From NCBI GenBank assembly GCA_036389675.1, contig DASVWI010000022.1, positions 1,112 to 65,111 on the forward strand: a DNA stretch of 64,000 nt, in the 5' to 3' direction. The notes under the pieces are model-generated. The model saw nothing but the letters and a program-made list of their open reading frames with translations, was not told where the DNA came from and did no database searches. This DNA is from Pyrinomonadaceae bacterium. GTDB taxonomy: Bacteria > Acidobacteriota > Blastocatellia > Pyrinomonadales > Pyrinomonadaceae. Of the stretch, positions 8,923-56,488 are shown one piece after another; positions within the stretch are counted from its first letter, which is position 1, and each line of letters starts with the position of its first letter. The translations under genes were made by a program, and so were the position numbers.

Positions 8923-11163
8923 TTAGGGGCGCGAGGCCGGGCCGTTGGGCGTGCCAGTCGGAGCGTTGAACTGTGCTCCGGGGGCTGCGGGGCCAGTGGG
9001 CGTTCCCGGCTGCTGTTGCTGCAACTGCGTCGGGGTCGGCGTATTGCTCGGAGGATTGCCGAGCGGCACAGGCTGAATGATTGTGGTCGAGCGCGTCCCG
9101 GCTCCGACAGTACCGGAGGTCGGACGGCCATGGAAGTCCGGGCGATAGATGCGAGGCGTGATGAAGAACAGAATCTCGTTGGTCTGGCGCGTAACGGCCT
9201 TGCGCTTGAAGAGATTGCCCAGCACAGGAATCGAGGCGAGGCCCGGCGTGCGATTCTGTATCTCGCTCTCGTTGTCCGCCAGCACACCGCCCACCACGGT
9301 CGTGCCTCCGTCCGGCACTAATACTTCCGTCTCCATCTTCTGCGTGTCAATGCCGGGCGTGCCGTTGACTGCGATGGTCGTGTTGACGCTGTTGTTTTCC
9401 GCAACCACGCGCAGCACAACCGTGCCCGCGTCCGTGATCTGCGGCGTCACTTCGAGCCTCAGCGGAACGGAGACGAACGTGGTCGTAAAGACGAGGACGC
9501 CGCCCGTACCACCTGCGCCCGTCTGCGGAGTCACGACCGGGATTTGCTGGCCGCTGGAAATCTCCGCCTTGCGATTATTGAGTGCCGTGACGCGCGGAGT
9601 GGCGACGATCTTCGCCTGCCCCTTGTTCTCGGCAGCGGTAATGAGCGCGCTGATCTGCGCCGTGCCGATCACACCGGTCGTCAAGCCTATGACCGTGCTC
9701 GGCAGATTAGCGCCGAGAGCGCGTGTCGGCTCAACTCCGATGCCGACGGGCACGCCGCCGGGCCTGAGACCCGTCGTGTTGCCGCCCGTGCCGCCGCCCG
9801 TGCCGGTCGTGCTGCCGGGAACGGTCGCAAACGAGCCCGCGCGACCGTCAGAGCCGATGGCGAGGGCGGAAATCTGAACGCCCAGGTCGCGGCTGAAGCT
9901 GCGGTTGGCGATAACGATGCGCGTCTCAATCTCGACCTGCGGCTCTGGCTGATCGAGCAGCGTGACGAGCTGGCGAATGGCGTCTATGTTCTCTCTGACA
10001 TCTGTAACGATCAGAGTATTGCTGCGGCCATCGACCTCTACGCTGCCGCGACGCGAGAGACGACGCGCGATGATCGGAAGGATTCCCTGCTCGCCGCTAC
10101 TGCCCTGCGCGCCGCCACCGCCGCCGCCCGTTGACTCTCCCTGTGAAGTCGAGCCGCCGGTGAAGCCGCTGTTAGGGCCAGCCGCCTGCGCCAGCGTGCC
10201 GGAGGCGCGCGCGTAATTGAGGCGAATGAATTCCGTGAGCAACTGCGAATTGTCGAGCCGCGCTTCGCTGATCTTCTGCTGCGAGGCAGCCTCGGACGCG
10301 AGCACCTCCACGGTCGCGACGCGCAGGATGTTTCCGTTCACGTCAACGCCCAGACGGTTGGCCCGCAGGATTGCGTCGAGCGCGATATTCCAGGGCACGT
10401 CCGTGACGTTGACCGTGACGGGAATCGGGCCGACGGAAGAATCTATGACGAAATTAACGCCGTACTGTTCGGTGATGTAGTTGAGGATGTCGCGTATATC
10501 TGCGTTGACGACATTGAGGTTGATCGGCTCGCCGACGAAACCCGCTTGCCCGTAGCGCTGTCCCTGCTCGGACTGCGTAGTCCTGTTATCGGCGGGCGTG
10601 ATCGTCACCGTCGGCTGCTGCGCTGCCGGGCCTGAAGCCCCCTGCTCCACAGCGAGGGCTCTCGCCTGACCGGCGCTTGCCGGCGCGGAAGCTGTCTGAA
10701 CGTGTGACGGCTGAGCAGAATTACGCGCAGCGTCTAAAGCAGCGCCGGGCGAAAGCACCAGCACGAGATTATTGTCGTCCATCTGCGAGCGATCACGCGC
10801 GGGCGCGCGCAAGGCTATGCGGAAACGGGCCAGCGGTTTCATGTTCGGGCGATTCTCTCGCTCGACCATGACGCCGGAGACCAGAGGCGTGCCCATCGCA
10901 TAGGACTGGGCCAGACGGGTCGCGTCAACGCCCGGCAGATCAACGAGGATCGTGCGCAGGTCTGGCCGCGAGACCGTATAAGCCATCGGGGCCGTACCGC
11001 TGATGGTGATGAAGGTCGAAGCGCCGGAGGTGGTGGCGCTTATGCCCGTCGCCACCGGCACTATGTTCGGGCGCGCCGAAGCGAGCGCGTAGAGCGAGCA
11101 CATCACGAAGAGGACGAGCGCGCCTCTTTTGATGGCTGCAATCAGGTAAAGCTGATCAGACAT
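8923..11163 (-). CDS. pilQ: type IV pilus secretin PilQ (AMIN domain, N-domains, secretin)
   Basis: Start trimmed to the ATG at 11163, which has a GGAGGG SD. Signal/anchor, AMIN-like N-terminus and secretin C-terminal blocks (GGTTVVGGVL...IPVLGNLFKRK...ELLFFITPRI). Confidence 0.9.
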   Translation of the reverse strand: MSDQLYLIAAIKRGALVLFVMCSLYALASARPNIVPVATGISATTSGASTFITISGTAPMAYTVSRPDLRTILVDLPGVDATRLAQSYAMGTPLVSGVMVERENRPNMKPLARFRIALRAPARDRSQMDDNNLVLVLSPGAALDAARNSAQPSHVQTASAPASAGQARALAVEQGASGPAAQQPTVTITPADNRTTQSEQGQRYGQAGFVGEPINLNVVNADIRDILNYITEQYGVNFVIDSSVGPIPVTVNVTDVPWNIALDAILRANRLGVDVNGNILRVATVEVLASEAASQQKISEARLDNSQLLTEFIRLNYARASGTLAQAAGPNSGFTGGSTSQGESTGGGGGGAQGSSGEQGILPIIARRLSRRGSVEVDGRSNTLIVTDVRENIDAIRQLVTLLDQPEPQVEIETRIVIANRSFSRDLGVQISALAIGSDGRAGSFATVPGSTTGTGGGTGGNTTGLRPGGVPVGIGVEPTRALGANLPSTVIGLTTGVIGTAQISALITAAENKGQAKIVATPRVTALNNRKAEISSGQQIPVVTPQTGAGGTGGVLVFTTTFVSVPLRLEVTPQITDAGTVVLRVVAENNSVNTTIAVNGTPGIDTQKMETEVLVPDGGTTVVGGVLADNESEIQNRTPGLASIPVLGNLFKRKAVTRQTNEILFFITPRIYRPDFHGRPTSGTVGAGTRSTTIIQPVPLGNPPSNTPTPTQLQQQQPGTPTGPAAPGAQFNAPTGTPNGPASRP

Positions 11164-11357
11164 GTTTCCCTCCTTAAGGGAAGCGTCGGTCCTGGCATCC
11201 ACCACGCGCTGCGCTCGTCAGTCTCCCCTGAAGGGATTCCGCAAAAAGCGCGCGCCGCACAACGCGGACGCCTACCGGCATGGATTATCAAGAGAGTGCG
11301 CGAGCCCTTTGAATATTTCCCGGAAGAGTTCCGCAGAGAAAAGGTTCGCGCATAGGG

Positions 11358-11419
11358 CTTTTGGGTCTCAAAGCGTGGCGGGCTCAGGCTTCCCGACACA
11401 CATTTTGAGACCCAAAGGG
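11358..11419 (-). other. long-stem hairpin between pilP and pilQ
   Basis: 13-nt perfect inverted repeat TTTGGGTCTCAAA / TTTGAGACCCAAA with a loop of about 31 nt, inside the 260-nt pilP-pilQ spacer. Confidence 0.4.
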
Positions 11420-11423
11420 TTGG

Positions 11424-12068
11424 CTACTGCTTGTCGGGAGAGGCGCTGCGCGCCCCCTGGCTTCTGGCAGGTTCGGCGGCGGCAGGAGCCGCAGCTCCCC
11501 GGGCCGAGGTCATGGAGTCCGCCACGGCATTGGCCTGCCGCAGCGGCTTGATTTCGACCGCCATCTCGCGCCGGCCATCGCTCCAACGCGATTCGCGACG
11601 AAAGACCAGACGGTCTTCTTCAATGGCGACCAGTTGGCCGTCAAAAAAAGTTTCGCCCGGGTAGATCACATAGGAAAGCTTGATCGGCGAGGCTTCGACC
11701 ATCGCCGCGTACCCTCTGGGCGTGCGGAATATCCCGGTGATCTGCACTTCGCCGAGCAGCAGCGCCGTCGTCGGCTTGGGCGCGGGCAGTTGCGCGTTCA
11801 TCGCCGCCATCTTCTGAGCCTTGTAGCGCTGTATGCGCTCCTGTATGGACGGCGGAGGGATGGGCGTCGGGACAGCCCTCACTCTCTTGACCGGCGGCTT
11901 ATATTTCTCGAACGGATCACGCTGGCCGGCCCTCTGTCCGTTGGAACTAGCCGCGCGGCTCGCGTCCTGCGCCTGCGTGCGCGAGAGCGCGCCCGAGGTC
12001 AGGAGGATTGCGCCGCCCATGGCGAGGCCGAAGATGATCTTGTGGACGTTTCCTTTGAATTGCTTCAT
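11424..12068 (-). CDS. pilP: pilus assembly protein PilP-like
   Basis: Signal peptide or lipoprotein-like N-terminus, RDPF motif, C-terminal beta-domain. Lies between pilO and pilQ. Confidence 0.7.
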   Translation of the reverse strand: MKQFKGNVHKIIFGLAMGGAILLTSGALSRTQAQDASRAASSNGQRAGQRDPFEKYKPPVKRVRAVPTPIPPPSIQERIQRYKAQKMAAMNAQLPAPKPTTALLLGEVQITGIFRTPRGYAAMVEASPIKLSYVIYPGETFFDGQLVAIEEDRLVFRRESRWSDGRREMAVEIKPLRQANAVADSMTSARGAAAPAAAEPARSQGARSASPDKQ

Positions 12069-12126
12069 TTGCTCTCTCTCCGTGATTGCCGCGGGAAGGG
12101 CAGCTCTCAGAGTCCTCTCGGTTCGA

Positions 12127-12765
12127 CTAGGGGATTGGCGACGGGGCGGGCGCTGCCGCCGCTTGTGGCTTGGCTGCCGGGGCAGCGGGCTTTTCCGCAG
12201 ACACGTAGTAAGCGGACATCAAAAACTGTGCATCGAGCGTTCGCCCGGGCTGTTGCTCTCGCTCTTTATCCTCAAGCTGCTTGAGCTTGAAATCCGTGAT
12301 CGAGACGATGCGTTGATACTTCGCCATCTGCTCAAAGAACTCGCGCAGGTTGGCGAAGCTGCTCGTCACTTCGACCTCAATCGGTTTGCCGCTGTAGAAG
12401 TCCTGCTGAAAATCATCCTTCGGCGTAAAGCGGCGCAGGGTCAGGCGGCTCAGGCGTGCCCTGTCCTGAACGCTTTGCAGCACGCTCGTCAGCTCACGCT
12501 GTTCCGGCAACAGCGCTCTCAGGTCATCAAACTCCGCCTGACGACTTTTGAAGGCTGCGCGGAACTCGTTGAGACGCTGCGAGGCGATGCGCGCCTGCTC
12601 GTTTTTCGGAAGCAGTTCGGCGATCTGGGCGTTCAGCTCTGCGGTCTCGGCGCGCGTGCCGCCGGTTACGAAATACCAGAAGCCCGCGTAGATGGCGAAA
12701 GCCAGAGTGCTGAAGATGACCATCCTCAGATACCAGGGCAGTGTTAGTAAGCTGTCGAGTCTCAT
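12127..12765 (-). CDS. pilO: type IV pilus assembly protein PilO
   Basis: Single N-terminal TM, a coiled coil, and a PilO-like C-terminal domain (FANLREFFEQMAKYQRIVSITDFKL). Synteny supports the call. Confidence 0.8.
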   Translation of the reverse strand: MRLDSLLTLPWYLRMVIFSTLAFAIYAGFWYFVTGGTRAETAELNAQIAELLPKNEQARIASQRLNEFRAAFKSRQAEFDDLRALLPEQRELTSVLQSVQDRARLSRLTLRRFTPKDDFQQDFYSGKPIEVEVTSSFANLREFFEQMAKYQRIVSITDFKLKQLEDKEREQQPGRTLDAQFLMSAYYVSAEKPAAPAAKPQAAAAPAPSPIP

Positions 12766-12801
12766 GACGAATCAATTCCCTTCGCGTGCAGCCTGCGTCC
12801 G

Positions 12802-13494
12802 CTATTTCTGAGCGATCTGGTTGGAAGGCGCTCCCGGGGCGGTCGCCGCCGGGGCCGGCGTCGTCGGGTTGGGTGTCGGCCCGCCGGGCGTGTACTTGCA
12901 CTTGATCGTGAAGCTGACCACCTCAGGCTTGGGCTCACTCGGGTCTTCCGAGAGCGCGACCTTGTCGAGAGTCTTGCGTTCGGTCTCAATGCTCAGGTTG
13001 GAGAAGAGGCCGGAGGAGAACTCAAGGCTTTGACCGAAGCGTGTCACAGAGGCTTCGTTCGGAGAGCCACCCTTAATCGTCAGCTCGCCGTTCTTGTGCT
13101 CGATGCCTTCCAGATAGAGCCCCGGCACGCTGTCTATGCGCTCCTTAATCGCTCTCAAGACCGAACCCGGCCCTTGCTGCGACGCGCGCAGTTTCTGTAT
13201 GGCGTCGATCCTGAGCTGTATGTCCTTGGTCTTCTTCTCTATCTCGGCCTGCTCTTTATTGATGGCGTCCATCTGGCTGGCTATCTGCTGCTGGCGTTCC
13301 AGCTCTTTGACCGCCGCCGCATGCTCGGCGCTCGTGCTCACATAGTTATAGCCCATGGCGAGCACCAGCATCGCGGCCACGACCAGCGCGAGCACCATCG
13401 TCTGGGCACGCGGGTTAGCGACCCTTTCCTCGACGACAGCGACCCCGCCGCTTGCGCGATCTGTGACCGACTCTAAAAGATTTATTTTGATCAT
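12802..13494 (-). CDS. pilN: type IV pilus assembly protein PilN
   Basis: MIKINLLE N-terminus, one TM and a coiled coil. 4-nt overlap with pilM. Confidence 0.85.
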   Translation of the reverse strand: MIKINLLESVTDRASGGVAVVEERVANPRAQTMVLALVVAAMLVLAMGYNYVSTSAEHAAAVKELERQQQIASQMDAINKEQAEIEKKTKDIQLRIDAIQKLRASQQGPGSVLRAIKERIDSVPGLYLEGIEHKNGELTIKGGSPNEASVTRFGQSLEFSSGLFSNLSIETERKTLDKVALSEDPSEPKPEVVSFTIKCKYTPGGPTPNPTTPAPAATAPGAPSNQIAQK

Positions 13495-14555
13495 CCCGCG
13501 TCCACTCCTCTCAAAGCGAGCCCGACAGCGACGGCCATCTCCGGCACGACCTCGCGCATGTAATCTGGATCGAAACGCTTTGTGTCCACCTTGATGCGGC
13601 GGAACGGGTCGAAGACCTCGACGGGCATCTCGAAACGATTGGCAAGGTATTCGATGAAGCCCGGAAGTTTTGACCCACCACCTGAAATCAGTATCTTCTG
13701 CACCGCGGCCTCGCCGTCCTCGGCAGTCGCTCGGTAAAAATCCATGGTCTTCTGCACTTCCATCGCCAGGATGTCCGAGACCGTTTCCAGTATCGGCTCA
13801 ATCGCGTGCCCCTCAGCGCCCTCGGGCGGAGGCATCCCGCGCTTGACGGCTTCGGCCTGATCGAAGGTGAGCGACAGCTCCTTCTGCAAGAGCCCGGTGT
13901 ATTGATTGCCGCCGACCGAAACGTCGCGCGTAAACACAGACCGTGTGCCGTTCAGGATGTTGATGTTCATCGTCGATGCGCCGATGTTAAGGAGCGCGAT
14001 GACCTGACCGGCGGCGGGCTGGTAGTTGACTTCGTAGCAGTTCTGCAAAGCGAAGGCATCAATATCAATGATGGCGGGCTGCTTGCCCGCGAGCTGTATG
14101 GCCTGTTTGACGTTGGCGATCTTGTCGCGCTTACAGGCCGCCAAGAGTACCTGAAGCGCATCCGGCTGAGAGCCAGTGACCTGATAGTCAAGGCTCACGT
14201 CGGAAATCTCAAACGGGATGTGCTCCTCCGCGTGCCACTCTATGGATTCCATCAACTCGTCTTCGGTCATCTGCGGCACGACGATGTTCTTGACGATCAC
14301 GGAATGGCCGCTGACGCCGGCCACGACCCGCTCGGTCTTGATCTGCTGGTCGCGGAAGATGTTAGAGATGACGTTGGAGACGTTGTTAAGCTCCATGATC
14401 TGGCCGTCAACGACAGAGTCGGCCTGAAGGTTCTCGTAACCGAGGCTGACGAGTTGAAGACTGTCGCGCTTGCCCTGTAGCTCGACCGCTTTGACAGAGC
14501 TTGAGCCGATGTCCAGACCAACCAGATTCTTTTTGCCGAGACCACGTTTCAACAT
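13491..14555 (-). CDS. pilM: type IV pilus assembly ATPase-fold protein PilM
   Basis: LVGLDIGSSSVKAVEL actin-like phosphate-1 motif, 354 aa, PilM-like throughout. Confidence 0.9.
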   Translation of the reverse strand: MLKRGLGKKNLVGLDIGSSSVKAVELQGKRDSLQLVSLGYENLQADSVVDGQIMELNNVSNVISNIFRDQQIKTERVVAGVSGHSVIVKNIVVPQMTEDELMESIEWHAEEHIPFEISDVSLDYQVTGSQPDALQVLLAACKRDKIANVKQAIQLAGKQPAIIDIDAFALQNCYEVNYQPAAGQVIALLNIGASTMNINILNGTRSVFTRDVSVGGNQYTGLLQKELSLTFDQAEAVKRGMPPPEGAEGHAIEPILETVSDILAMEVQKTMDFYRATAEDGEAAVQKILISGGGSKLPGFIEYLANRFEMPVEVFDPFRRIKVDTKRFDPDYMREVVPEMAVAVGLALRGVDAG

Positions 14556-14567
14556 GACTTGCTGGTT

Positions 14568-14608
14568 CCTCGCGACCCTACAGATCGCTTGCGATTGCGC
14601 TCGCGAAG
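14568..14608 (-). promoter_or_regulatory. hairpin sequestering the pilM Shine-Dalgarno
   Basis: On the RNA, CUUCGCGA (rc of 14601-14608) pairs over 8 bp with UCGCGAGG (rc of 14568-14575). The 3' arm contains the GAGGA SD, 11 nt upstream of the pilM ATG. Confidence 0.4.
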
Positions 14609-14877
14609 ACGCTGGCGGGCTTTGCGTGCCCTCGATGCGTTGACGCGCGCGCGTTTGGTCGAAGTTGTATGGATTGGGGGATTCAAGGGGGTGATTGAAG
14701 AGCGCACCGACAAACGCTCGATTAGCTCGGTTGCAGAGGGCTTCTTTTGATGGGGTTGACCGTGATTGAACACAGCGTGGAAAGTTCGTGCCGTGAAAAG
14801 AGGAAAGCTAAGAAGAGGGGTGGGAGGGATCGTTCGCGCAGCGTGAAATGGCCCGGGCTACGCTTGACCGTCTCACT

Positions 14878-14972
14878 TCGGCAACCCGGCCAGCTCAAAC
14901 GCTTAACGCACGCTTGACCCCCGTTAGCTTTGCGACCCCCGCTCACGCGAGGTGTGCCTTTATCGGCTGACT
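14878..14972 (-). promoter_or_regulatory. candidate c-di-GMP-I (GEMM-I) riboswitch aptamer
   Basis: RNA reads AUAAAGGCACA-CCUCGC-GUGA-GCGGGG-GUCGCAAAGC-[bulged hairpin GCUAACG...CGUUAAGC]-GAGCUGGCCGGGUUGCC. Same order and spacing as the Vc2 aptamer as I recall it. Confidence 0.5.
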
Positions 14973-15101
14973 ATCAAAGAAGGCGACGCGCTCTATCGTC
15001 CGTGTTTATTCGAGCCGGACTGTGGCGTCGCGCTTTCAATCGAGTAATTAAAGGCCATGGCCTCTAAACAGGGTGAACCGGGCCGTCCACCTTCAAAACC
15101 G

Positions 15102-15131
15102 AGATTACAACAGTGCGGACAACCTTGTCAA
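15102..15131 (-). promoter_or_regulatory. sigma70-like promoter for the pil operon leader
   Basis: The minus strand reads AAAAATAACAA-TTGACA-N18-TAATCT, with an AT-rich UP-like tract upstream. It would give a leader of about 540 nt. Confidence 0.35.
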
Positions 15132-15213
15132 TTGTTATTTTTCCATGTTTAATTATTGAAGAGGAAAGAGTAAGAGGACGAAAGGGGCTGTTCGCGCCGG
15201 GTTTTAGGCTTAT

Positions 15214-15245
15214 ATTCTGGAAAAGCCGACAGGCGCTTCCAGAAT
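15214..15245 (-). terminator. hairpin after the ABM gene
   Basis: 9-bp stem ATTCTGGAA / TTCCAGAAT directly after the stop codon at 15247. The T tract is weak. Confidence 0.35.
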
Positions 15246-15246
15246 T

Positions 15247-15537
15247 TCATCCGGCAAATGCTTCGTAGATTTCAAGGGTCGGGCGCTCCTCGGCCATGCC
15301 CGGAGACTGTTTGCGGTGCGCCGAGACGAAGGCTTCCGATTCAGTCCATTCCTGAAAGGCTTCGCGTGATTTCCAGCGTGTGAGAACGACGTAAATGTTG
15401 CCTTCGGTGGGCCGCAGCACCTGCAAGTCTATGAAGCCGGGCATACAGTCCACGGCCCTGTCGCGCTCCATAAAGGTCTGCTCGAAATCCTGCTCGCGCC
15501 CACTGGCGACGGGGATACGATTCATGACGATTATCAT
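15247..15537 (-). CDS. antibiotic biosynthesis monooxygenase (ABM / IsdG-like) domain protein
   Basis: 96 aa. A ferredoxin-like ABM pattern: MNRIPVASGREQDFEQTF...VVLTRWKSREAFQEWTESEAF. Confidence 0.75.
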   Translation of the reverse strand: MIIVMNRIPVASGREQDFEQTFMERDRAVDCMPGFIDLQVLRPTEGNIYVVLTRWKSREAFQEWTESEAFVSAHRKQSPGMAEERPTLEIYEAFAG

Positions 15538-15745: not shown

Positions 15746-17488
15746 ATGAAGATCGCTCGTAGATTGCTGCTCGCAGCGGTCGTGCTCATTCTACTGGCAG
15801 GCATCTGGCTCTGGTGGAACCGTTTCCAGAAGGTGGACATGGCGACCTATGTCCCAGCCGATACGCTCGTCTACATGGAAGCCAACAGCCTGCCGCAGAT
15901 CACGAGCGCCATCACTTCCACGGATGCCTGGACAGCGCTGGCCGGGCCAGCCGGTATCAGGACCGATCTGGGCCGGATTGGCTGGTTGAGCCGTCTGGCC
16001 CTGTGGACGGGGATTGGCCCGGCTGAGGCGGTGGTGTTTTCGCGCGCGCAGGTAGCCGTTGCCGTGATGGGTTTCGACGCGGCTGATGCTGGCGAAACCT
16101 TGAAGGTCAAGCCGCGTTATGCGGTCGTCGTTGAGACTCATACGAGCGCAGGGCGGGCGCGCTCTGCCGTCGAGAGCAGAATCGGGGATTTCGCGCGGCG
16201 CGCTTACAAAGAGCCGCGCTTTGAGCGCAGGCAGGTGGATGGAACAGATTTTTTGACGTGGAGCTCGCCGACGGATAAGAGACGCATCATCCTGGCCGTG
16301 TTAGAAAGCGTCGCAGTCATAGGCAATGATGAAGCTGCTGTGCGCGCTTGTCTGGCTGTCCGGCGCGGCGAGCGGCAAAATCTGGCGGGCGACGCACAGC
16401 TGGAAGAGATGCGCGAGCGCGTGGCCGGTAACGGGGCGCTCGCCTTCGGTTTTGTTTCGTCGAAGGGCGCGGCTCCGTTGCTGGAAGTCGCGGCGGCGAT
16501 CTATGTTGCACAGCTTTCGGAAGATCCGCGTATGCAGGGTGCGGCGGCGGTCGTCCTGCCGCAACTCGCGAGCAAGATACTGGGTGGCGCGGGGTGGAGC
16601 GCTCGCATGACGGGCGGCATAGTTGAAGACCGCTATTTTCTCTCGCTTCAAAACGGGGCGGCGGCACGCCTGCGTGCCCCTCTCGCATTCACTGATAAGG
16701 GGACGAACGTCGCCGGCGATCTATTGCCAGCCGATACCTATTCGATGTCACGCTACGAATCGGGCGACGCGGTGGCGGCATGGCGCGGCTTGAAGGGCGC
16801 GGTCATCTCGCAGCTGGACACGGTCGGCGCGTTCGTGGTTACGCGGCTTTCCGATACCCTGTTCAAGCCTTACGGGATTGACGAGCCGGAGACTTTTCTG
16901 CGCGCCGCCGGGCCTGAGTTCGTCACGGCGAGGTTGGACGATACGGGCACAAGCACGGTCATTATCGTAGAGGTGCGCGATGAAAAGGCGCTCAGAGAGT
17001 TGGTCTCCAGGAGGCTCGGCGCAGGGGCTGGAACGGAGCAGGTGGGCGATGCTTTAATGATGGTCTCGAAGGAAGAGGAGCGCGGCGCAGCCAGCTTCGT
17101 CGACGGGCGACTGGTTATGGGTGCGACACCTAATGTGCGCCGTTGTCTTGAAGCGCGCGCGAAGGGTCAGACGCTGAGCCGGGCCGATGCTTTCAAAGGG
17201 GCCGCCCGTCTTGCTTCGATGAACAGTGCGGCCAATGCTGTGACCTACACGGATGACAGGTTGTCGGCTCGCAACTTTATCACGGCGATTGCCATCCAGC
17301 GCGGGGCGAGCGTGAAGTCCTTCAACGAAACGGAAGTGGAGCGCTCGCTTGGTCAAATGCCTTACGCCGTCAGCGCAACGCGATTGTCCGAAGGAGGCTT
17401 CGAGAAGACTACGCGCTCATCCTTCGGGCAGTTCGGCGCGCTCGCCTCAGAGTTCGCGCCTGAGACTCAGTCCGGGCCGACGCGTTGA
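15746..17488 (+). CDS. membrane-anchored hypothetical protein, DUF3352-like
   Basis: N-terminal TM followed by YVPADTLVYMEANSL, typical of DUF3352 as I recall it. Shares blocks with the C-terminal half of the anti-sigma protein at 33145-35889. Confidence 0.6.
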   Translation: MKIARRLLLAAVVLILLAGIWLWWNRFQKVDMATYVPADTLVYMEANSLPQITSAITSTDAWTALAGPAGIRTDLGRIGWLSRLALWTGIGPAEAVVFSRAQVAVAVMGFDAADAGETLKVKPRYAVVVETHTSAGRARSAVESRIGDFARRAYKEPRFERRQVDGTDFLTWSSPTDKRRIILAVLESVAVIGNDEAAVRACLAVRRGERQNLAGDAQLEEMRERVAGNGALAFGFVSSKGAAPLLEVAAAIYVAQLSEDPRMQGAAAVVLPQLASKILGGAGWSARMTGGIVEDRYFLSLQNGAAARLRAPLAFTDKGTNVAGDLLPADTYSMSRYESGDAVAAWRGLKGAVISQLDTVGAFVVTRLSDTLFKPYGIDEPETFLRAAGPEFVTARLDDTGTSTVIIVEVRDEKALRELVSRRLGAGAGTEQVGDALMMVSKEEERGAASFVDGRLVMGATPNVRRCLEARAKGQTLSRADAFKGAARLASMNSAANAVTYTDDRLSARNFITAIAIQRGASVKSFNETEVERSLGQMPYAVSATRLSEGGFEKTTRSSFGQFGALASEFAPETQSGPTR

Positions 17489-17546: not shown

Positions 17547-18968
17547 TCAACTCGATGAGTCTTCCAGCGCAGGATAGTCGAAGGCGGAGTTGGCGAGCAC
17601 CGAGCGCAGGTTGACCTGATTGAATAAAGTCTCAAGATATGCGCCGAAGCGATGGAGCACGGGCGTCAATTCGATTGCTCCTCGCGCGGCGGAAACCTCT
17701 TCCATAAAACGCTCGCAGGCATCCCAATCCTTGTACATCAGGTAGCGCATGCTTCCATTGCGGAACGCATTGAGCCTCGCGATAAGCTGTGAAACAGGAT
17801 GCTGGTCGCGTTCCTTCTCCGCGCGCTTGACGAGTTGGAGCAGAAGCCAGAGGTCGCGCCGCAGCGCCGTCGATTGTTCGAGCTTGATGTGAAAAGTATC
17901 GAAGAGCCTCGCGCCGTCAAGCGCGGGGTCGAAGACCTGCGCCAGCCCGGTCGTGGATTGCTGGAAGCAGTTATTGAGCAGGCCGTATGCTGTTTCAATT
18001 CTGGCGTAGATCGTCGGCGCTTGCCGCATCGAGATTACGTCCAGCAGCTCCTGCGTGTACACCCGGCGCAGTTCCATCAGCATGGCATAGTTGGTGACAT
18101 CAAGCTCGTCAATGATCTTTTGATCGAGGCCCTCGGCGCGCGCCAGACAGGCTTCGATAAACTCCATCAGCCATCGCGCTCCTTCATGGATGAGGGCAAA
18201 GATGGGCAGCGTCTGCTTGAGCGGCTGATCGCGCTTGAGCAGGCTTTCGATAAATTCCAGTCGCCTGAGCAGCCGCGCCAGCTCTGTGAAAATTATGAGC
18301 AGGTCAGGGCCAAAGGAGGCTGGAACATCCGCGCGGCGCGTGAGGGCGACCAGCGAATCCTGCAAATTCTCCACCGAGTAATGCTGCTCGGTTCGCATCA
18401 CGGACTTCGCGCCCTCAAGCTGGTCCAGCTGGCGCGCCACAATTTTCCCCAGGCTGACCCACGTATGCAGGTTAACGGTCGGCTTTTCAAGCAGCGATTC
18501 GCAGAGACCGAGCGTATCCTTTAAGGCTTCCGCCAGCGTCATGTATGATCGTGCGGCGGCATTAGCCAGTGCTTCGGCATGGAAAGTCGCAGGCGGCGAT
18601 ATGCCCTGTGCCCCGTCCTCTTCGACCTCGTAGAGAGCGTCGGCCTGAGTCGTGTACGGGCTCAGCAGGCTGTAGGAGAGTTGAGTGGCGCGCAACAGCA
18701 CTCTGCGCGTGATGCGGGTCTCGACCGTCCAGTCGCGTGACGTGACTTCGGGTTGGTCGGGGCTCGACGCCGGGTGATTACGCACTTCAAAAAAACCGCC
18801 GAGAGCGCGCAGCCACAGGCCAAGCTCATGCGCCGGCCCGTTATTGCGAAAGATGTCCTGGCTCCCGTTCGTCGGCTTGAACTCTGAAGACTTTGCTGGT
18901 TCCATCCCTTTGCTTTCCGAAGACTCGCCGGTTGCTCGTGTCAGAATAAATTGAAAGATGGCGCTCAT
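17547..18968 (-). CDS. hypothetical protein, predicted all-helical, no family recognised
   Basis: 473-aa ORF with coding-like composition. The antisense ORF at 17799-18524 is Arg/Leu-rich and looks like noise. The start is uncertain; an internal Met at residue 22 is possible. Confidence 0.6.
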   Translation of the reverse strand: MSAIFQFILTRATGESSESKGMEPAKSSEFKPTNGSQDIFRNNGPAHELGLWLRALGGFFEVRNHPASSPDQPEVTSRDWTVETRITRRVLLRATQLSYSLLSPYTTQADALYEVEEDGAQGISPPATFHAEALANAAARSYMTLAEALKDTLGLCESLLEKPTVNLHTWVSLGKIVARQLDQLEGAKSVMRTEQHYSVENLQDSLVALTRRADVPASFGPDLLIIFTELARLLRRLEFIESLLKRDQPLKQTLPIFALIHEGARWLMEFIEACLARAEGLDQKIIDELDVTNYAMLMELRRVYTQELLDVISMRQAPTIYARIETAYGLLNNCFQQSTTGLAQVFDPALDGARLFDTFHIKLEQSTALRRDLWLLLQLVKRAEKERDQHPVSQLIARLNAFRNGSMRYLMYKDWDACERFMEEVSAARGAIELTPVLHRFGAYLETLFNQVNLRSVLANSAFDYPALEDSSS

Positions 18969-45562: not shown

Positions 45563-45870
45563 AACAGAATCTCCCTTAGCATTTTTCAGATGGCTACCAG
45601 AGTATCTGATTGCCACGATAATCTTCAAGCACACACAGAGCGGATGAAAGAAGGCCCGAAGGGGATTGTTTCCACTTCCGCTGCGCGTGCGCTGGGCTCG
45701 CCGTCTTGGTATATTGATGACGCCATGGCCCGGATGACTGAGGACAGAAGCGTCAGCGCTCGGCCCATCGGCCCTTGAACTCTCCCGTCTCTTACATTTG
45801 CTTTAAGCTCAAAAAATTTCCTGCTGATGGGAAAGCGGAAACGCTTGCCCGCTTTCAAGGGGGATTTCGG

Positions 45871-48800
45871 ATGTATAAGAACCTCGTCGAGATGCTGATC
45901 GACGGCAGCGTTGACGGCATTATCGCTTTCGATCAAGAGTGCCGCTATACGCTCTGGAACCCGGCGATGGAGCGGCTTTCGGGCGTCAGCCGTGAGGACG
46001 CTCTGGGCAAGTGCGCCTTCGATGTCTTCCCCTTCCTGAAAGAGACGGGAGAAGATCAATACTTCTACGACGCGCTGGCGGGAAAGAACGTGATCGCCAC
46101 GGATAGGGCCTTGACCGTTACGCAGACCGGGCACAGAGTTTTTTTCGAGGGCCGCTATTCTCCGCTGCAAGATGAGAGCGGAGAGATCGTCGGCGGCCTG
46201 TGCATCATCCGCGACATCACCGAGCGCAAGGAAGCCGAGGAAGAGCGCTCGCTGCTGATCGAGGAGCAGGCCGCCCGCCGCGAAGCCGAAGCCGCCGAGC
46301 GCCGCTTTCTGGAGGAGTTGCAGGAATCCGAGAAGCGCTTTCGTCAGCTTGCGGAAAATATTGACGAGGTCTTCTGGCTCACAGACCCCAACACGTCCGA
46401 GCTTATCTACGTCAGTCCCGCTTACGAGAGGATTTGGGGGCGCTCGCGCGAAAGCCTGTACAGTAATCCGTCCTCTTTCATCGAAGCCGTTCACCCGGAC
46501 GACCGCGAGCGCGTCATCGCCGCCCGCCCACGCGCACGCCTGGGCTCATATAATCAGGAGTATAGAATCAAGCGCCCGGACGGGACGATTCGCTGGGTGT
46601 GGGCGCGCGCCTTTCCCATCCGCGATGAACGGGGCGAGGTGACGCGCATCGCCGGTATCGTAGACGACATCACAGAGCGCAAGACAATCGAGCGCGATAT
46701 CAGCGAGCAGCGCGAGGTGGTCGAGACCGTCAACCACATAGGCCAGATTCTCTCCGCCGAGCTCGACCTGCAAAGACTGGTGCAGGCGGTGACGGATGCG
46801 GCCACGGAGTTGACGGGCGCGCATTTCGGCTCATTCTTCTATAACGTTTTGGATAAGCGCGGCGCTTCCTACATGCTCTACACGCTCTCGGGCGTGCCGC
46901 GCGAGGCCTTCGAGCATTTCCCCATGCCGCGCGCCACAGACCTCTTTGGGCCAACCTTCCGGGGCGAAGGGATTCTACGCATTGACGATGTCAGGCAAGA
47001 CCCGCGCTACGGCAAGAACTCTCCTTATTACGGCATGCCTCCCGGCCACCTGCCTGTGACGAGTTATCTGGCCGTGCCGGTCATCTCGCGCTCCGGTGAA
47101 GTACTGGGCGGGCTCTTCTTCGGCCATCCCGAACCGGGCAGGTTCACGCAGTACACAGAGCGTATCGTGACGGGGCTCGCCGCGCAGGCCGCCGTCGCCA
47201 TGGACAACGCTCGCCTGTATGAAGCCGCACAGCGCGAGCGCGCCCTGCTCGAAGCGAGCGAGGAGCGTTATCGCTCTCTGGCAGACGCCATGCCGCAGAT
47301 CGTCTGGACGGCGCGCGCCGACGGCTACACAGACTATTACAACCGGCGCTGGTTTGAGTACACGGGCTTCACCGAAGAGGAGAGCCTTGCCGAAGAGGGA
47401 TGGAAGAATGCACTTCACCCGGATGATGTCACGCCGAGCCGCGAGCGCTGGTATAGATGCGTTGACACGGGCACGGAGTACAAGATCGAGTATCGCTTCA
47501 GGCGCGCCTCCGATGGGACGTATCGCTGGCATCTCGGGCGCGCCCTCCCCATGCGCGACCAGGACGGTCAGATCGTCAGGTGGTTCGGAACGTCCACGGA
47601 TATTGACGATCAGAAGCGGGCCGAAGAATCTCTCAGATTCATAGTTGAGGCGAGCGAGATACTGTCGGAGTCGCTCGATTACGAGTCCACGCTGGCGAGC
47701 GTCGCACGGCTGGCCGTGCCTCGACTGGCCGACTGGTGCGCCGTCGATATGCTGGAACAGGGCCAGACCTTACGCCGGCTGGCCGTGGCCCATACCGATC
47801 AGGCGAAAATAGAGCTGGCGTTGGAACTTGAGCGCCTGTACCCGACGGACATGAACGCGCCCCACGGCCTGCCCGTAGTCCTGCGCACGGGTAAACCGGA
47901 ATGCGTCTCTGAGATATCGGATTCAATGCTGGCGGAGGCGGCGCGGGATGCAGAGCATCTGGGCTTTATCCGAGAGCTGGGCCTGAAGTCTTACATGATC
48001 GTGCCATTGATCGCGCGCGGGCGTACCCTTGGCGCAATCACCTTCGTCACGGATGAGTCCGGGCGGCAATACACGGAGGCAGACCTCTCGTATGCCGAAG
48101 ACCTTGCGCGCCGCGCCGCTCTGGCCGTTGATAACGCGCGCCTCTACCGCGAAGCGCAGGAAGCAAACCGCACGAAGGACGAGTTTCTTGCGACCGTTTC
48201 GCATGAGCTACGCACGCCGCTGACGGCTGTGCTCGGTTGGGCGCGCATCCTGCGCTCGGGCGGTATTGACCAGGCAACTGCGCTGCGCGCTCTTGAGACC
48301 ATCGAGCGCAATGCCAGATCGCAGGCACAGCTCGTCGAAGACCTGCTGGATGTCTCGCGCATCATTACGGGCAAGCTGCGACTGGATGTCAGGCCCGTAG
48401 AGTTGAAGTCCGTGATCGATCTCTCCATCGAAGCGATTCGCCCAGCCGCCGAAGCCAAGGGCGTCCGCCTACAGGTCGTGCTCGATCCGATGGCCGGGCC
48501 AATCTCCGGCGACCCTGATCGCTTGCAGCAGATCATCTGGAATCTGCTCTCGAACGCGGTCAAGTTCACCCCCAGAGACGGGCGCGTGCAGGTGCGCCTC
48601 GAACGCGTGCGCTCGCACGTCGAGGTCACCGTCAGCGACACCGGAATGGGAATCGAGCCGAAGTTTCTGCCTTTCGTCTTTGAGCGCTTTAGACAGGCAG
48701 ACGGCACGAGCACGCGTCAGTATGGCGGGCTCGGTCTGGGCTTAGCGATTGTGCGTCATCTGGTCGAGCTGCACGGCGGACAGGTTCGCGCCGCGAGCCC

Positions 48801-49356
48801 CGGCGAGAATCAGGGCTCGACCTTCACTGTCGAATTACCGCTCATGGCCGTTCAATCCGAGAGTAGCGAGCAGGAACACGCCGCGATTCCGACCGGCGAG
48901 AATTTTGCCGGGCTTGATATCACCGGAATCCTTGACGGCTTGAGAGTGCTGGTCGTTGACGATGAGGAGGATGCTCGCGTCTTGATCGCAACCATCCTCG
49001 AACAGCGCGGGGCAAAGGTTCTGAGCGTGCCTTCGGCCACGGAGGCACTCGAAACGCTGCCCGTGCTTCAACCCGATGTCATCATCAGCGATATAGAGAT
49101 GCCTTACGAGGACGGCTATGCGTTGATTAAAAAGATACGCGAGCTTGACCCGAAAGAGGGTGGCCGCACGCCCGCCGCCGCGCTCACCGCCTACGCCCGC
49201 ACGGAAGATCGCATGCGAGCCTTGCTGGCAGGCTTTCAGATTCATCTGCCCAAGCCCGTCGATCCCGCGGAGCTGATCGCCGTCGTCGCCAACCTCTCAG
49301 GACGCACAGGCCCGGGCATCTCGGAACACGACACATATTCCTACGGCGATCAATAA
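45871..49356 (+). CDS. hybrid sensor histidine kinase (PAS-PAS-GAF-PAS-GAF-HisKA-HATPase-REC)
   Basis: Start trimmed to MYKNLVEM. H-box [15 protein letters not shown] boxes ([26 protein letters not shown]), and a receiver [11 protein letters not shown]...DIEMPYEDG. Confidence 0.85.
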
Positions 49357-53965: not shown

Positions 53966-56488
53966 TTAATGCCCGCCGTTTCGTCCCGCCAGAGTGGCGA
54001 TCAGTTTTGAGAGCCGGGCTAATTCGACCGGCTTCGTCAGATGCTCCTGATAGCCAGCCGAGATGGCGCGCCGCCGGTCTTCTTCCCTGACATAAGCCGT
54101 TAGCGCCACGGCTGGCAAGCTGCCCCCGTTCTGCTTCTGCTCCAAAGCCCGCACAGCGCGAATCAGATCATAGCCGTCTTCGCCGGGCATGCCGATGTCC
54201 GACACCAGCACGTCCGGTCTTGCCTGTTCAAGGGCGGCCAGAGCCTCGGCTGCTGACGAAGCGGTCGTAACACACGCCCCACACTGTTCCAGCGATTTAC
54301 GCAGCAGGTCGCGCGCGTCCTCATCGTTATCAACGACGAGGACTCTCACGTCCTGAAGCTGCGGCTCGCGGGCCGTGCCCGCAAGGTCTTCTTCTGATTG
54401 GTAGGCGAAGACCTCATCGCCTGTCTCCTGTCGCACGGCCCTCACAGGCAGGTCTAAAATGAAAGTCGCGCCGCGCCCCTCTCCTTCGCTTTCTGCGCGG
54501 ACGCTGCCGCCATGCATCTCGACCAGATGACGCACAATCGCGAGGCCCAGACCGAGCCCGCTGTGTGCCCTCGTGCTGGTGCTGTCGGCCTGCCGAAAGC
54601 GGTCGAACACGTAGGGCAGAAACTCCGCGTTGATGCCTTGGCCCGTATCGCTCACCACAATCTGCGTGTGCGAGTTAACGCGTTCGAGGCGCACGGTGAT
54701 GAGCCCCTCCTTCGGCGTGAACTTGACGGCATTCGAGAGCAGATTCCAGATGACTTGCTGCAAGCGATTGGCGTCGCCCCAGATCAGGCTGGCTTTGGGG
54801 TTTATAATCTTCTCTATACGAATCTGCTTGGCTTCGGCTGCCGGGTGGACGGAGGCTATGGCCGCATCGATCACTTCCTTGAGATCAAAGGGGCGAACCG
54901 TCAGGCTGGATTTTCCTGTGATGATGCGCGAGACATCCAGTATGTCTTCGATAAGCTGCGCCTGCGCGTTGGCGTTGCGCTCGATGGTGGCGAGGGCCTG
55001 AGCGCGGGTCGCCTCGTCCAGCTTGCCTGACTGAAGCAGGCTGAGCCATCCGAGCACAGCCGTCAAGGGCGTGCGTAGCTCGTGCGAGAGAGTCGCCAGG
55101 AATTCGTCCTTGAGACGGTTGGAGGATTCGGCGGTGGCGCGAGCGCTGCTCTCAAGCTCGAAGAGCCGCACGTTTTCGATTGCCACCGCCGCCAGATTCG
55201 CCGCCATGCGAATCGCCGCGACGTGCTCTTTCGTATATGCCCCCAGCTCGTAGCTCTGCACCTCTATAGTTCCGACGATGCGGCCCATGACGGCCATCGG
55301 CGCGGCCATGGAAGACTGCGGCAACAGTCCGTTATCCACGCCGACCTTCACGCTCGGATGCCCGCGCGTCGCGGCCAGATAATCGTCCGTGATGATGATC
55401 TCGCCCGTCCTGACGGCGCGGCTGTTCGGGCCGTCCGTGGTGATGGGCATCGGCGGCAGATTGGATACGTCGACCTCCGCGCCGTCGCCCCACGCGTAGG
55501 CGGCCCGACGCACATTTTGTTTCGGGTCGTAGAGGGCGATGAAGATTCCTATGCATGGCATGGAGGCGCATGTGAAATCCTGTAGGGCACGAAAGATCGT
55601 CCGAAGATCGCGCGCCGTCCCGAGCGCCTGTGCGAGCGGCGTCAGACGTTCGAGCAACCCTTCATATTCCGTGAGCGCGCGGCGCTCTGCTGCGCGCAAG
55701 GCTTCTTCCGCGCGCTGGCGCTCCGTCAGATCGGCGGAGACGCCGACGATGCCGACCATCTTTCCTTCATCATAGATCGGCGTGTCCGTGACCATCGCCG
55801 GAAAGGTCTCGCCGTCGCGACGCCGAACCAGCATCTCGCCCGACCAGCTCTTGCCGGACTTCAGGCTCGACATAATCTCCGCGGCCTGTCCCTGTGCCGT
55901 CTCCGTGGGGGTGATTTCGATGATGTTACGACCGAGCGCTTCGGCAGCGGGCCAGCCGTAGAGCCTTTCCGCGAACCTGTTCCAATAGGTGATGATTCCG
56001 TCCAAATCCGTGGCGATCACGGCTTGCTCGACCGTATCCAACAGGTGGGCCTGAAAACGTATCGTCTCTTCGACCTTCTGCCGCTCCGCGATCTGCTGCT
56101 CCAGCTCGGCCTGCCGCTGCCGTGCCGTTCGGGCATTGGCCTCCGCTCGCCGCCGCGCCCTGTGCATCTCATGGCTGAGCGATGAGCCGATGATGCCGAC
56201 GCTAAGATAGAGGGCGAGGCCGATGACGTGTGACGGGTCTTCGAGCGCCATTGCGTTAAGAGGTGGAAGGATAAAATAGACGGCTAAGACAGCACCGAGC
56301 AGGAGGGCCAGTATGGCCGGGCCAAGCCCGCAGGCCCATGCGACGAATAGCACCGCGAGATAGTATGTGACGTAAGGAGCTGTGTCGCCTATCACCGGAT
56401 TGAGCGACAGACGCAGGAGCGTCGCCAGAAGGACGCTCGCCACGGCGAGAGAATAGCGCAGACCGGGGGAACGGTTAATCACCTGCAT
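53966..56488 (-). CDS. hybrid sensor histidine kinase (DUF4118-like TM, PAS, GAF, HisKA-HATPase, REC)
   Basis: KdpD-type N-terminal membrane module, H-box [13 protein letters not shown], receiver VLVVDNDEDAR...DIGMPGEDG. The transmitter is a close paralog of the 45871-49356 kinase. Confidence 0.85.
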   Translation of the reverse strand: MQVINRSPGLRYSLAVASVLLATLLRLSLNPVIGDTAPYVTYYLAVLFVAWACGLGPAILALLLGAVLAVYFILPPLNAMALEDPSHVIGLALYLSVGIIGSSLSHEMHRARRRAEANARTARQRQAELEQQIAERQKVEETIRFQAHLLDTVEQAVIATDLDGIITYWNRFAERLYGWPAAEALGRNIIEITPTETAQGQAAEIMSSLKSGKSWSGEMLVRRRDGETFPAMVTDTPIYDEGKMVGIVGVSADLTERQRAEEALRAAERRALTEYEGLLERLTPLAQALGTARDLRTIFRALQDFTCASMPCIGIFIALYDPKQNVRRAAYAWGDGAEVDVSNLPPMPITTDGPNSRAVRTGEIIITDDYLAATRGHPSVKVGVDNGLLPQSSMAAPMAVMGRIVGTIEVQSYELGAYTKEHVAAIRMAANLAAVAIENVRLFELESSARATAESSNRLKDEFLATLSHELRTPLTAVLGWLSLLQSGKLDEATRAQALATIERNANAQAQLIEDILDVSRIITGKSSLTVRPFDLKEVIDAAIASVHPAAEAKQIRIEKIINPKASLIWGDANRLQQVIWNLLSNAVKFTPKEGLITVRLERVNSHTQIVVSDTGQGINAEFLPYVFDRFRQADSTSTRAHSGLGLGLAIVRHLVEMHGGSVRAESEGEGRGATFILDLPVRAVRQETGDEVFAYQSEEDLAGTAREPQLQDVRVLVVDNDEDARDLLRKSLEQCGACVTTASSAAEALAALEQARPDVLVSDIGMPGEDGYDLIRAVRALEQKQNGGSLPAVALTAYVREEDRRRAISAGYQEHLTKPVELARLSKLIATLAGRNGGH

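Follow-up and report, generated by a model that had tools for sequence, protein, structure and literature searches.

Pyrinomonadaceae, an abundant group of soil Acidobacteriota, have for the most part been seen in metagenomes alone, and hardly any work has addressed their regulation. In the 64,000-nt stretch of DNA from this family that we analyzed (the window), the pilM start codon (ATG at 14555) lies 691 nt from the nearest gene upstream, a small ABM-domain gene whose stop is at 15247. What occupies so long a gap ahead of a type IV pilus operon? An earlier, sequence-only reading had measured the gap at this length, had seen no credible open reading frame (ORF) in it, and had proposed that it carries a c-di-GMP-I (GEMM-I)-type aptamer in the leader of pilMNOPQ. 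Such an aptamer is there, as judged by its score against Rfam family RF01051, its conservation, and compensatory changes among relatives, and it offers a concrete, testable connection from c-di-GMP signalling to the machinery that assembles type IV pili in this family.

The operon and its surroundings

Pfam identifies four of the genes downstream of the gap as pilM, pilN, pilO, and pilQ (Table 1). The 214-aa ORF between pilO and pilQ gives no Pfam match even with the cut-off relaxed to E 0.01; its place in the operon is that expected of PilP. We agree that the gap holds no credible ORF. Its two longest same-strand ORFs, of 74 aa each, are not conserved in frame, and a coding function was rejected on that ground: among relatives with 95-98 % identical PilM, the shared peptide words are scattered over different frames, and one of the ORFs contains the tip of an aptamer hairpin whose length (8-46 nt) shows no bias towards multiples of three (21/15/11).

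The sequence-only reading had also noted that no GGDEF or EAL gene lies in the window. As far as a string search and Pfam searches of selected ORFs reach, we saw no GGDEF, EAL, or HD-GYP gene there: none of the six frames contains a GG[DE]EF string, and the Pfam-scanned ORFs with EALxR strings encode a glycosidase-like protein and a hybrid histidine kinase. The window does encode two large hybrid histidine kinases, at 45775-49356 (+) and 53966-56488 (-), with multiple PAS and GAF domains and a receiver domain. Two further large ORFs adjoin the locus, at 15746-17488 (+) (580 aa) and 17547-18968 (-) (473 aa), in which no Pfam domain was found at E<=0.001.

Table 1. Coordinates of the operon, the riboswitch, and other leader features in the window
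Feature	Position	Strand	Basis
pilMNOPQ, regulated operon	8923..14555	-	Pfam, position
pilM	14555-13491	-	Pfam PilM_2, E 7.5e-73
pilN	13494-12802	-	Pfam PilN, E 3.7e-6
pilO	12765-12127	-	Pfam PilO, E 1e-24
ORF in PilP position, 214 aa, between pilO and pilQ	12068-11424	-	position
pilQ (secretin)	11205-8923	-	Pfam Secretin, E 2.5e-44
SD GAGGAA of pilM	14571-14566	-	sequence
Complete c-di-GMP-I aptamer including P1	14863..14978	-	RF01051, lineage CMs, covariation
P1 5' strand: outer UUUGAUAGUC (14978-14969) and ligand-proximal GCCG (about 14968-14965)	14965..14978	-	covariation
P1 3' strand, CGAAGUGAGACGGUCAAG	14863..14879	-	shared between P1 and competing hairpin
First hairpin (P1a in Rfam; P2 in crystal-structure naming), CCUCGC-GUGA-GCGGGG	14937..14952	-	covariation
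CGCAAAGC junction	14927..14934	-	column composition, RF03167 comparison
Second hairpin (P1b/P3), AGCU-AA-CGGGGGUC with GAGCU-GG-CCGGGUU, variable tip	14883..14929	-	covariation
Equivalent of Vc2 G20: G	14958	-	block alignment with Geobacter pilM and Cd1
Equivalent of Vc2 A47: A, first A of CGCAAAGC junction	14931	-	column composition
Equivalent of Vc2 C92: C, after GGGUUG	14880	-	column composition, Geobacter C75
Competing (anti-P1) hairpin, predicted	14820..14876	-	RNAfold, conserved complementarity
Pyrimidine-rich, G-poor tract CCCUCUUCUUAGCUUUCCUCUUUUCAC; candidate termination/Rho-loading region	14793..14819	-	composition
Predicted promoter of pilM leader	15104..15153	-	near-invariant in 47 aptamer-bearing leaders
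Predicted 5'-terminal transcript hairpin, GGUGGAC-GGCCCG-GUUCACC	15072..15091	-	read from sequence

A full-length c-di-GMP-I aptamer upstream of pilM

The RNA quoted in the sequence-only reading is encoded on the minus strand, where that reading had placed it. When we scanned the whole window against Rfam 15 at curated thresholds, the output consisted of three tRNAs and, as the sole other match, c-di-GMP-I (RF01051) at 14877-14968 (-). The minus-strand search against this family had been named in advance as a check, and the score of 48.9 bits exceeds the gathering score of 35; the match covers model positions 1-87 of 87, with E = 1.6e-6 for both strands of the 64-kb window. The element lies in cis to pilM and on the same strand, with a conserved predicted promoter ~120 nt upstream and pilM ~310 nt downstream, and we infer that it is co-transcribed with pilM.

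A permissive Rfam scan of 14300-15500 gave no further RNA family. Clan competition in that scan was won by RF03167, the c-di-GMP-I-GGC variant, at 51.6 bits, slightly above the RF01051 score. We nevertheless do not count the aptamer as a member of the variant class, because it falls short of the RF03167 gathering score (51.6 bits against 59) and the diagnostic position is A in the window (CGCAAAGC; CGCAAAG) but G in the variant's consensus (CGCGAAG). A tandem second aptamer was considered at a second occurrence of CGCAAAGC (14626-14619) and rejected, with no Rfam match at E<=10 on 14300-15500.

Conservation among relatives

A PilM search, limited to one genome per species, yielded 80 loci, all from metagenome-assembled genomes of Pyrinomonadaceae, Blastocatellia, or Acidobacteriota, with PilM identities of 75-98 %. 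The element occurs at the matching leader position in 46 of these 80 orthologous pilM leaders, as found by nhmmer and in agreement with two lineage covariance models (CMs), R1 and R2, in every case on the pilM strand and 230-340 nt 5' of the ATG. The window and its 46 aptamer-bearing relatives, together the 47 homologues referred to below, score 70-132 bits with the lineage models.

The remaining 34 loci have no RF01051 match at the gathering score. A lineage model run on them with filters off found none in the leaders and noise of <=9.9 bits outside the leader, and we reject a divergent or remnant aptamer in these leaders on the strength of both blank searches. From -10 to ATG, leaders measure 400-560 nt with the aptamer and about 320-345 nt without it. 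A profile of the aptamer-less leader matches the aptamer-bearing ones twice only, in the promoter and first 50-80 nt and in the last 140-170 nt; aptamer and expression platform thus form a module in mid-leader, the leader ends being common to the family. Other regulation acts in the last 140-170 nt, because that part is also found in relatives without the aptamer. The split in presence and absence provides a natural comparison for the gain or loss of a riboswitch module within an existing leader.

The middle leader of the aptamer-less loci (L036-L080, 34 in number; for instance L036:2650-3000) contains hairpins of its own, GGCAG..CUGCC and GCCUUCG..GAAGGC. RNAalifold on a MAFFT alignment of these middle leaders gives essentially no consensus fold. 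The order CUUGAA-GAUAAG...GCCGGGUU-UCAAG recalls the outer parts of a GEMM element, an impression that neither the covariance model nor RNAalifold supports.

Helices and compensatory changes

The aptamer consists of two hairpins joined by an AAA linker and closed by P1. We mapped the Rfam helices onto a structure-independent MAFFT alignment (A1), in which 99.3 % of cells form standard pairs and 7 pairs show double-sided changes; none of 500 column shuffles matches the observed value, and sliding the 3' partners by 1-3 columns reduces pairing to 26-50 %. A structure-guided alignment that includes P1 (A6), and that leans towards the model by construction, gives 92.8 % pairing over the whole aptamer and 19 pairs with double-sided changes, against 26-46 % when slid. 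Conservation and compensatory changes in relatives, for which the sequence-only reading had suggested looking, are thus both seen (46 of 80 leaders; 7-19 covarying pairs).

Most structural elements had been recognized correctly. The 6-bp helix CCUCGC/GCGGGG with its GUGA cap is present and matches RF01051; 99.6 % of its cells are paired, 4 of its 6 pairs change on both sides, and each of the 47 homologues has GYGA as the tetraloop (with U in 27 and C in 20). GC/GC closing pairs flank this first hairpin, at 14957-14956 and 14932-14931. Directly after the helix comes CGCAAAGC, as described, followed by the second, bulged hairpin and the tail GGGUUGCC. In the second hairpin, 98.9-99.3 % of cells are paired and 3 of the pairs have changed on both sides; a single G-G mismatch occurs in the window copy, and the tip ranges from 8 to 46 nt among homologues.

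The exception is P1. Its proposed strands, UCAGC and GCUGG, are 64.7 % paired across the 47 homologues, a value that 174 of 500 shuffles reach (shuffled mean 64.1 %), and this helix was therefore discarded; GCUGG cannot serve in it because the second hairpin uses it as its 3' strand. The actual P1 is a long, interrupted helix of about 13 pairs, 14978-14965 with 14880-14863. In its outer part, UUUGAUAGUC (14978-14969) pairs with GACGGUCAAG (14872-14863), and in its ligand-proximal part GCCG pairs with CG..GU in CCGAAGU (about 14879-14874). Homologues keep the outer UUUGA/UCAA, and the inner helix takes a different form in each subclade: AGUC/GAC, CUCA/UGAG, CCUA/UAGG, AAGCU/AGCUU, GGAGC/GCUUC, and GAAGCC/GGCUUU. 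In the structure-guided alignment, double-sided changes occur in 9 of 9 outer pairs (78.5 % paired) and in 3 of 4 inner pairs (89.9 % paired); in another MAFFT alignment (A3), P1 is 70.4 % paired against 31-40 % when slid. The single-sequence minimum free energy (MFE) structure of the window aptamer also recovers P1 together with the first hairpin (z = -2.1). Duplex-energy z-scores of P1 with shuffled flanks are uninformative, because G+C-rich shuffles also pair well.

The ligand pocket

Which cyclic dinucleotide should this pocket admit? In the V. cholerae Vc2 aptamer, G20 reads the Hoogsteen edge of one ligand guanine (G-alpha), and C92 is the Watson-Crick partner of the other (G-beta) (PMC6140456). 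In the G. metallireducens pilM riboswitch, P2 has the pair U15-G38 at its base, and the ligand pairs with C75 (PMC9262584). We anchored the pocket positions of the window on the published sequences of this riboswitch and of C. difficile Cd1. The column equivalent to G20 holds G in 44 of the 47 homologues, C in the other 3, and A in none, and the C92-equivalent column holds C in all 47. The base at 14931, the equivalent of the intercalating A47 of Vc2, is A in 46 homologues and U in one.

Since the downstream operon is of the same type, and the fold of the same family, as in the G. metallireducens pilM riboswitch, the RNA might be supposed to sense cGAMP as that GEMM-Ib riboswitch does. The cGAMP-sensing GEMM-Ib RNAs, however, have A in place of G20, and the wild-type G20 Vc2 RNA binds cGAMP at about 10 uM compared with picomolar for c-di-GMP (PMC6140456). 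Immediately 5' of the closing pair of the first hairpin, the window and Cd1 have G, and Geobacter pilM has A. With G, A, and C at the G20, A47, and C92 columns across the 47 homologues, the pocket signature is, as far as sequence can indicate, that of the c-di-GMP type and not of cGAMP, and a cGAMP-sensing RNA at this locus is very unlikely. We infer that the window RNA binds c-di-GMP.

The three C variants at the G20 equivalent are L018:2561-2703, L032:2565-2708, and L075:2660-2782 (the pocket columns are 42 and 69 of alignment A6); L075, the lowest-scoring copy under the model, combines this C with the U at the A47-equivalent position. By sequence, these copies may have altered ligand affinity or specificity, or may be decaying.

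Might the window copy itself be a decayed, non-functional relic, or its resemblance to the family a matter of chance? The G-G mismatch in its second hairpin and the lack of the element in 34 of 80 related pilM leaders would agree with that, but the RF01051 score exceeds the curated threshold, the element is kept across loci whose PilM identity is only 76-98 %, every helix shows compensatory changes, and the freely varying hairpin tip contrasts with invariant pocket bases. We consider a relic or a chance match extremely unlikely, and the element is, with high confidence, a functional class I c-di-GMP riboswitch (GEMM-I, RF01051) of the pilMNOPQ leader, a judgement that leaves the sign of its regulation aside.

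A predicted competing hairpin in the expression platform

The sequence-only reading had raised the prospect of direct RNA-level c-di-GMP control of the pilus genes, which the position of the aptamer and a plausible switching helix suggest. RNAfold predicts the hairpin concerned, the competing hairpin, in the window and in nearly all main-clade relatives. Its arms are GUGAGACGGUC (14876-14866) and GAUCCCUCCCAC (14831-14820), around an inner hairpin AGCGU...ACGCU (14864-14840). In the main clade, GAAGUGnGACGGnCAA, which runs from just after C92/C93 through the P1 3' strand, can pair with the pyrimidine-rich UUG-CC-UC-CGCUUU and would then enclose a variable inner hairpin. Both P1 and the competing hairpin draw on the P1 3' strand, so that each excludes the other.

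In an alignment of 24 relatives (A4), 89.6 % of the cells of the competing helix are paired, against 38-64 % when slid. Changes in it are one-sided only and wobble-compatible (U-G to C-G or U-A; G-C to G-U), and its covariation score equals that of shuffles. Pairing survives the changes in L019, L030, L026, and L028, and the diverged L026 and L028 retain the hairpin with sequences of their own. Conserved complementarity therefore supports the competing helix well without proving it. The unconstrained MFE structure of the window also pairs AAAGCUAA with UUAGCUUU (14811-14804). As UUAGCUUU is, both in the window and in L001, an exact complement of the aptamer's AAAGCUAA, the sequence permits a second alternative pairing, one that would invade the aptamer. 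Beyond the needs of pairing, GCUUU(U)CCAUUCG is conserved 3' of the competing hairpin (14793-14819 (-) in the window; L005:2733-2760).

How would ligand binding reach the pilus genes? Transcription would start at the conserved promoter near 15100, and the aptamer would be made about 120 nt later. Bound c-di-GMP would stabilize P1; without ligand, the P1 3' strand (14879-14863) would pair with the pyrimidine-rich segment 14831-14820, made about 40 nt later, and the resulting competing hairpin would stop transcription before pilM. c-di-GMP would then turn the pilus genes ON by anti-termination. We favor this reading because the design matches that of the Geobacter pilM riboswitch, an ON switch, and the C. 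difficile pilA1 switch is also ON; it is our best guess, somewhat better than an even call. Several observations weaken it: the changes in the competing helix are one-sided only, the window has CCCUCUUC rather than a U run 3' of the hairpin, no canonical terminator was found, and some 250 nt of leader still separate the platform from the pilM ATG, including the part shared with aptamer-less relatives. Downstream of the aptamer, a simple scan for canonical intrinsic terminators came up empty in the window and in L005; in L010 it returned one site, at chance level, so that such a terminator was rejected as the platform.

The same aptamer could instead be read out through Rho or through translation and act as an OFF switch. 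c-di-GMP would lock P1 and leave 14831-14793 single-stranded, whereupon Rho would load or the Shine-Dalgarno sequence (SD) would be masked, and pilMNOPQ expression would fall. The missing canonical terminator and the long leader left 3' of the platform suit such a read-out, as does the base composition: the downstream leader is rich in C (0.32-0.37) and poor in G (about 0.21) against a background of 0.28 and 0.27, and its best 60-nt C-minus-G value stands at the 99th percentile of the window. A C-rich, G-poor tract suits Rho-dependent termination equally well, and the sign could then be opposite; composition alone, however, is weak evidence for a rut site, and in the main clade UUUUCCAUUCGUUUU, with UUUU (UUUUCC), lies directly 3' of the competing hairpin. 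As for translation, the SD GAGGAA has a complement, UUUCCUC, in the window tract, but this match is not conserved in the main clade (GCUUUUCCAUUCG) and 250 nt to the SD make direct masking unlikely. Both characterized pilus riboswitches, moreover, are ON switches (PMC9262584, PMC6366702). We regard an OFF read-out as possible though unlikely, and anti-termination, with ligand turning the genes ON, remains our preferred reading.

The lack of a canonical terminator, the C-rich, G-poor tract, and the long further leader make it conceivable that in this lineage a c-di-GMP-I aptamer acts through Rho-dependent termination, with a Rho-loading site that is uncovered or sequestered, and that the pocket variants of the relatives have shifted in specificity; we put this forward as speculation, with considerable doubt. 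To our knowledge, a Rho-dependent read-out is undescribed for cyclic-dinucleotide riboswitches.

Relation to known riboswitches

The RNA class, its ligand, and its association with pilM, pilO, and pilQ have long been known: GEMM elements upstream of all three genes were listed in the first description, in 2007 (PMC1950547). The window copy is an ordinary further example, and the result extends the catalogue rather than changing understanding, because a standard Rfam scan finds it. Beyond the routine are the soil Acidobacteriota host, the clade-specific presence in a shared leader, the non-canonical platform, and the pocket variants of the relatives.

The window aptamer resembles RF01051 members such as V. 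cholerae Vc2 and C. difficile Cd1 in its full-length match, the AAA-joined hairpins, the CGCAAAGC core, and the pocket bases G20, A47, and C92. The first description recognized a GYRA-loop subtype that lacks the tetraloop receptor and has two bulged A residues, and it also mentions the AAA linker (PMC1950547). The sequence-only reading had seen in the loop a fit to the receptor-less subclass, in agreement with that description, and the aptamer has both the AAA linker and the two bulged A residues, which lie where the second hairpin begins at its base. The window aptamer differs from Vc2 and Cd1 in its host (Acidobacteriota, Pyrinomonadaceae), in an unusually long and interrupted P1 of about 13 pairs, and in a platform without a canonical terminator that is followed by about 250 nt more leader before the pilM ATG. 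Cd1, in addition, is an OFF switch with a separate anti-terminator, whereas in the window P1 and the competing hairpin exclude each other directly.

A parallel in gene content is the GEMM-Ib riboswitch upstream of pilM in Geobacter metallireducens and G. sulfurreducens. The Geobacter pilM element has been studied by NMR, ITC, and kinetic modelling, which describe an ON switch whose aptamer and terminator are mutually exclusive (PMC9262584). It shares with the window copy the RNA family, the downstream pilMNOPQ, and an aptamer 3' part that doubles as the 5' arm of a downstream hairpin. Its selectivity position is A and its ligand 3',3'-cGAMP, whereas the window has G; its terminator extends as far as the second hairpin, part of which it takes up, and closes with a clear U run (AUUUCUUUUU), whereas the window hairpin begins after C92/C93 and has no adjacent U run. 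In C. difficile, the c-di-GMP-II riboswitch Cdi-2-4 upstream of pilA1 shows ligand-dependent terminator read-through and is ON (PMC6366702). There too type IV pilus genes are under RNA-level c-di-GMP control, which for the window we only propose, but the class II fold is unrelated, the regulated gene encodes a pilin rather than the alignment and secretin components, and the host is Gram-positive.

Other elements of the leader

The leader of pilMNOPQ measures roughly 540 nt. Close to the pilM end, about 60 nt 5' of the ATG, is a small conserved hairpin, GGGC-ACGCAAA-GCCC (14617-14631 (-)), which has no Rfam match; its loop repeats the CGCAAAGC of the aptamer, and it belongs to the part of the leader that aptamer-less relatives share.

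At the other end, the predicted promoter consists of ATTAAACA (15153-15146), AAAAATA (15142-15136), a -35 TTGACA (15131-15126), a 16-nt spacer, and a -10 TGTAAT (15109-15104). Its consensus, (A/G)TTAAACA, AAAATA, TTGACA, 16-17 nt, and TGTA(A/C)TCT, is nearly invariant in all 47 aptamer-bearing leaders, and the same architecture is found in 28 aptamer-less pilM loci. A simple sigma-70 scan did not pick up this promoter, because its -10 has G at position 2. Just 3' of the -10, GGUGG is conserved, as part of a conserved UUUGA(C/A)GGUGG that leads into the predicted 5'-terminal hairpin. The -10 sequence TGTA(A/C)TCT is unusual, and the A/T-rich block TTAAACA..AAAATA upstream of TTGACA may serve as an UP element or bind a regulator.
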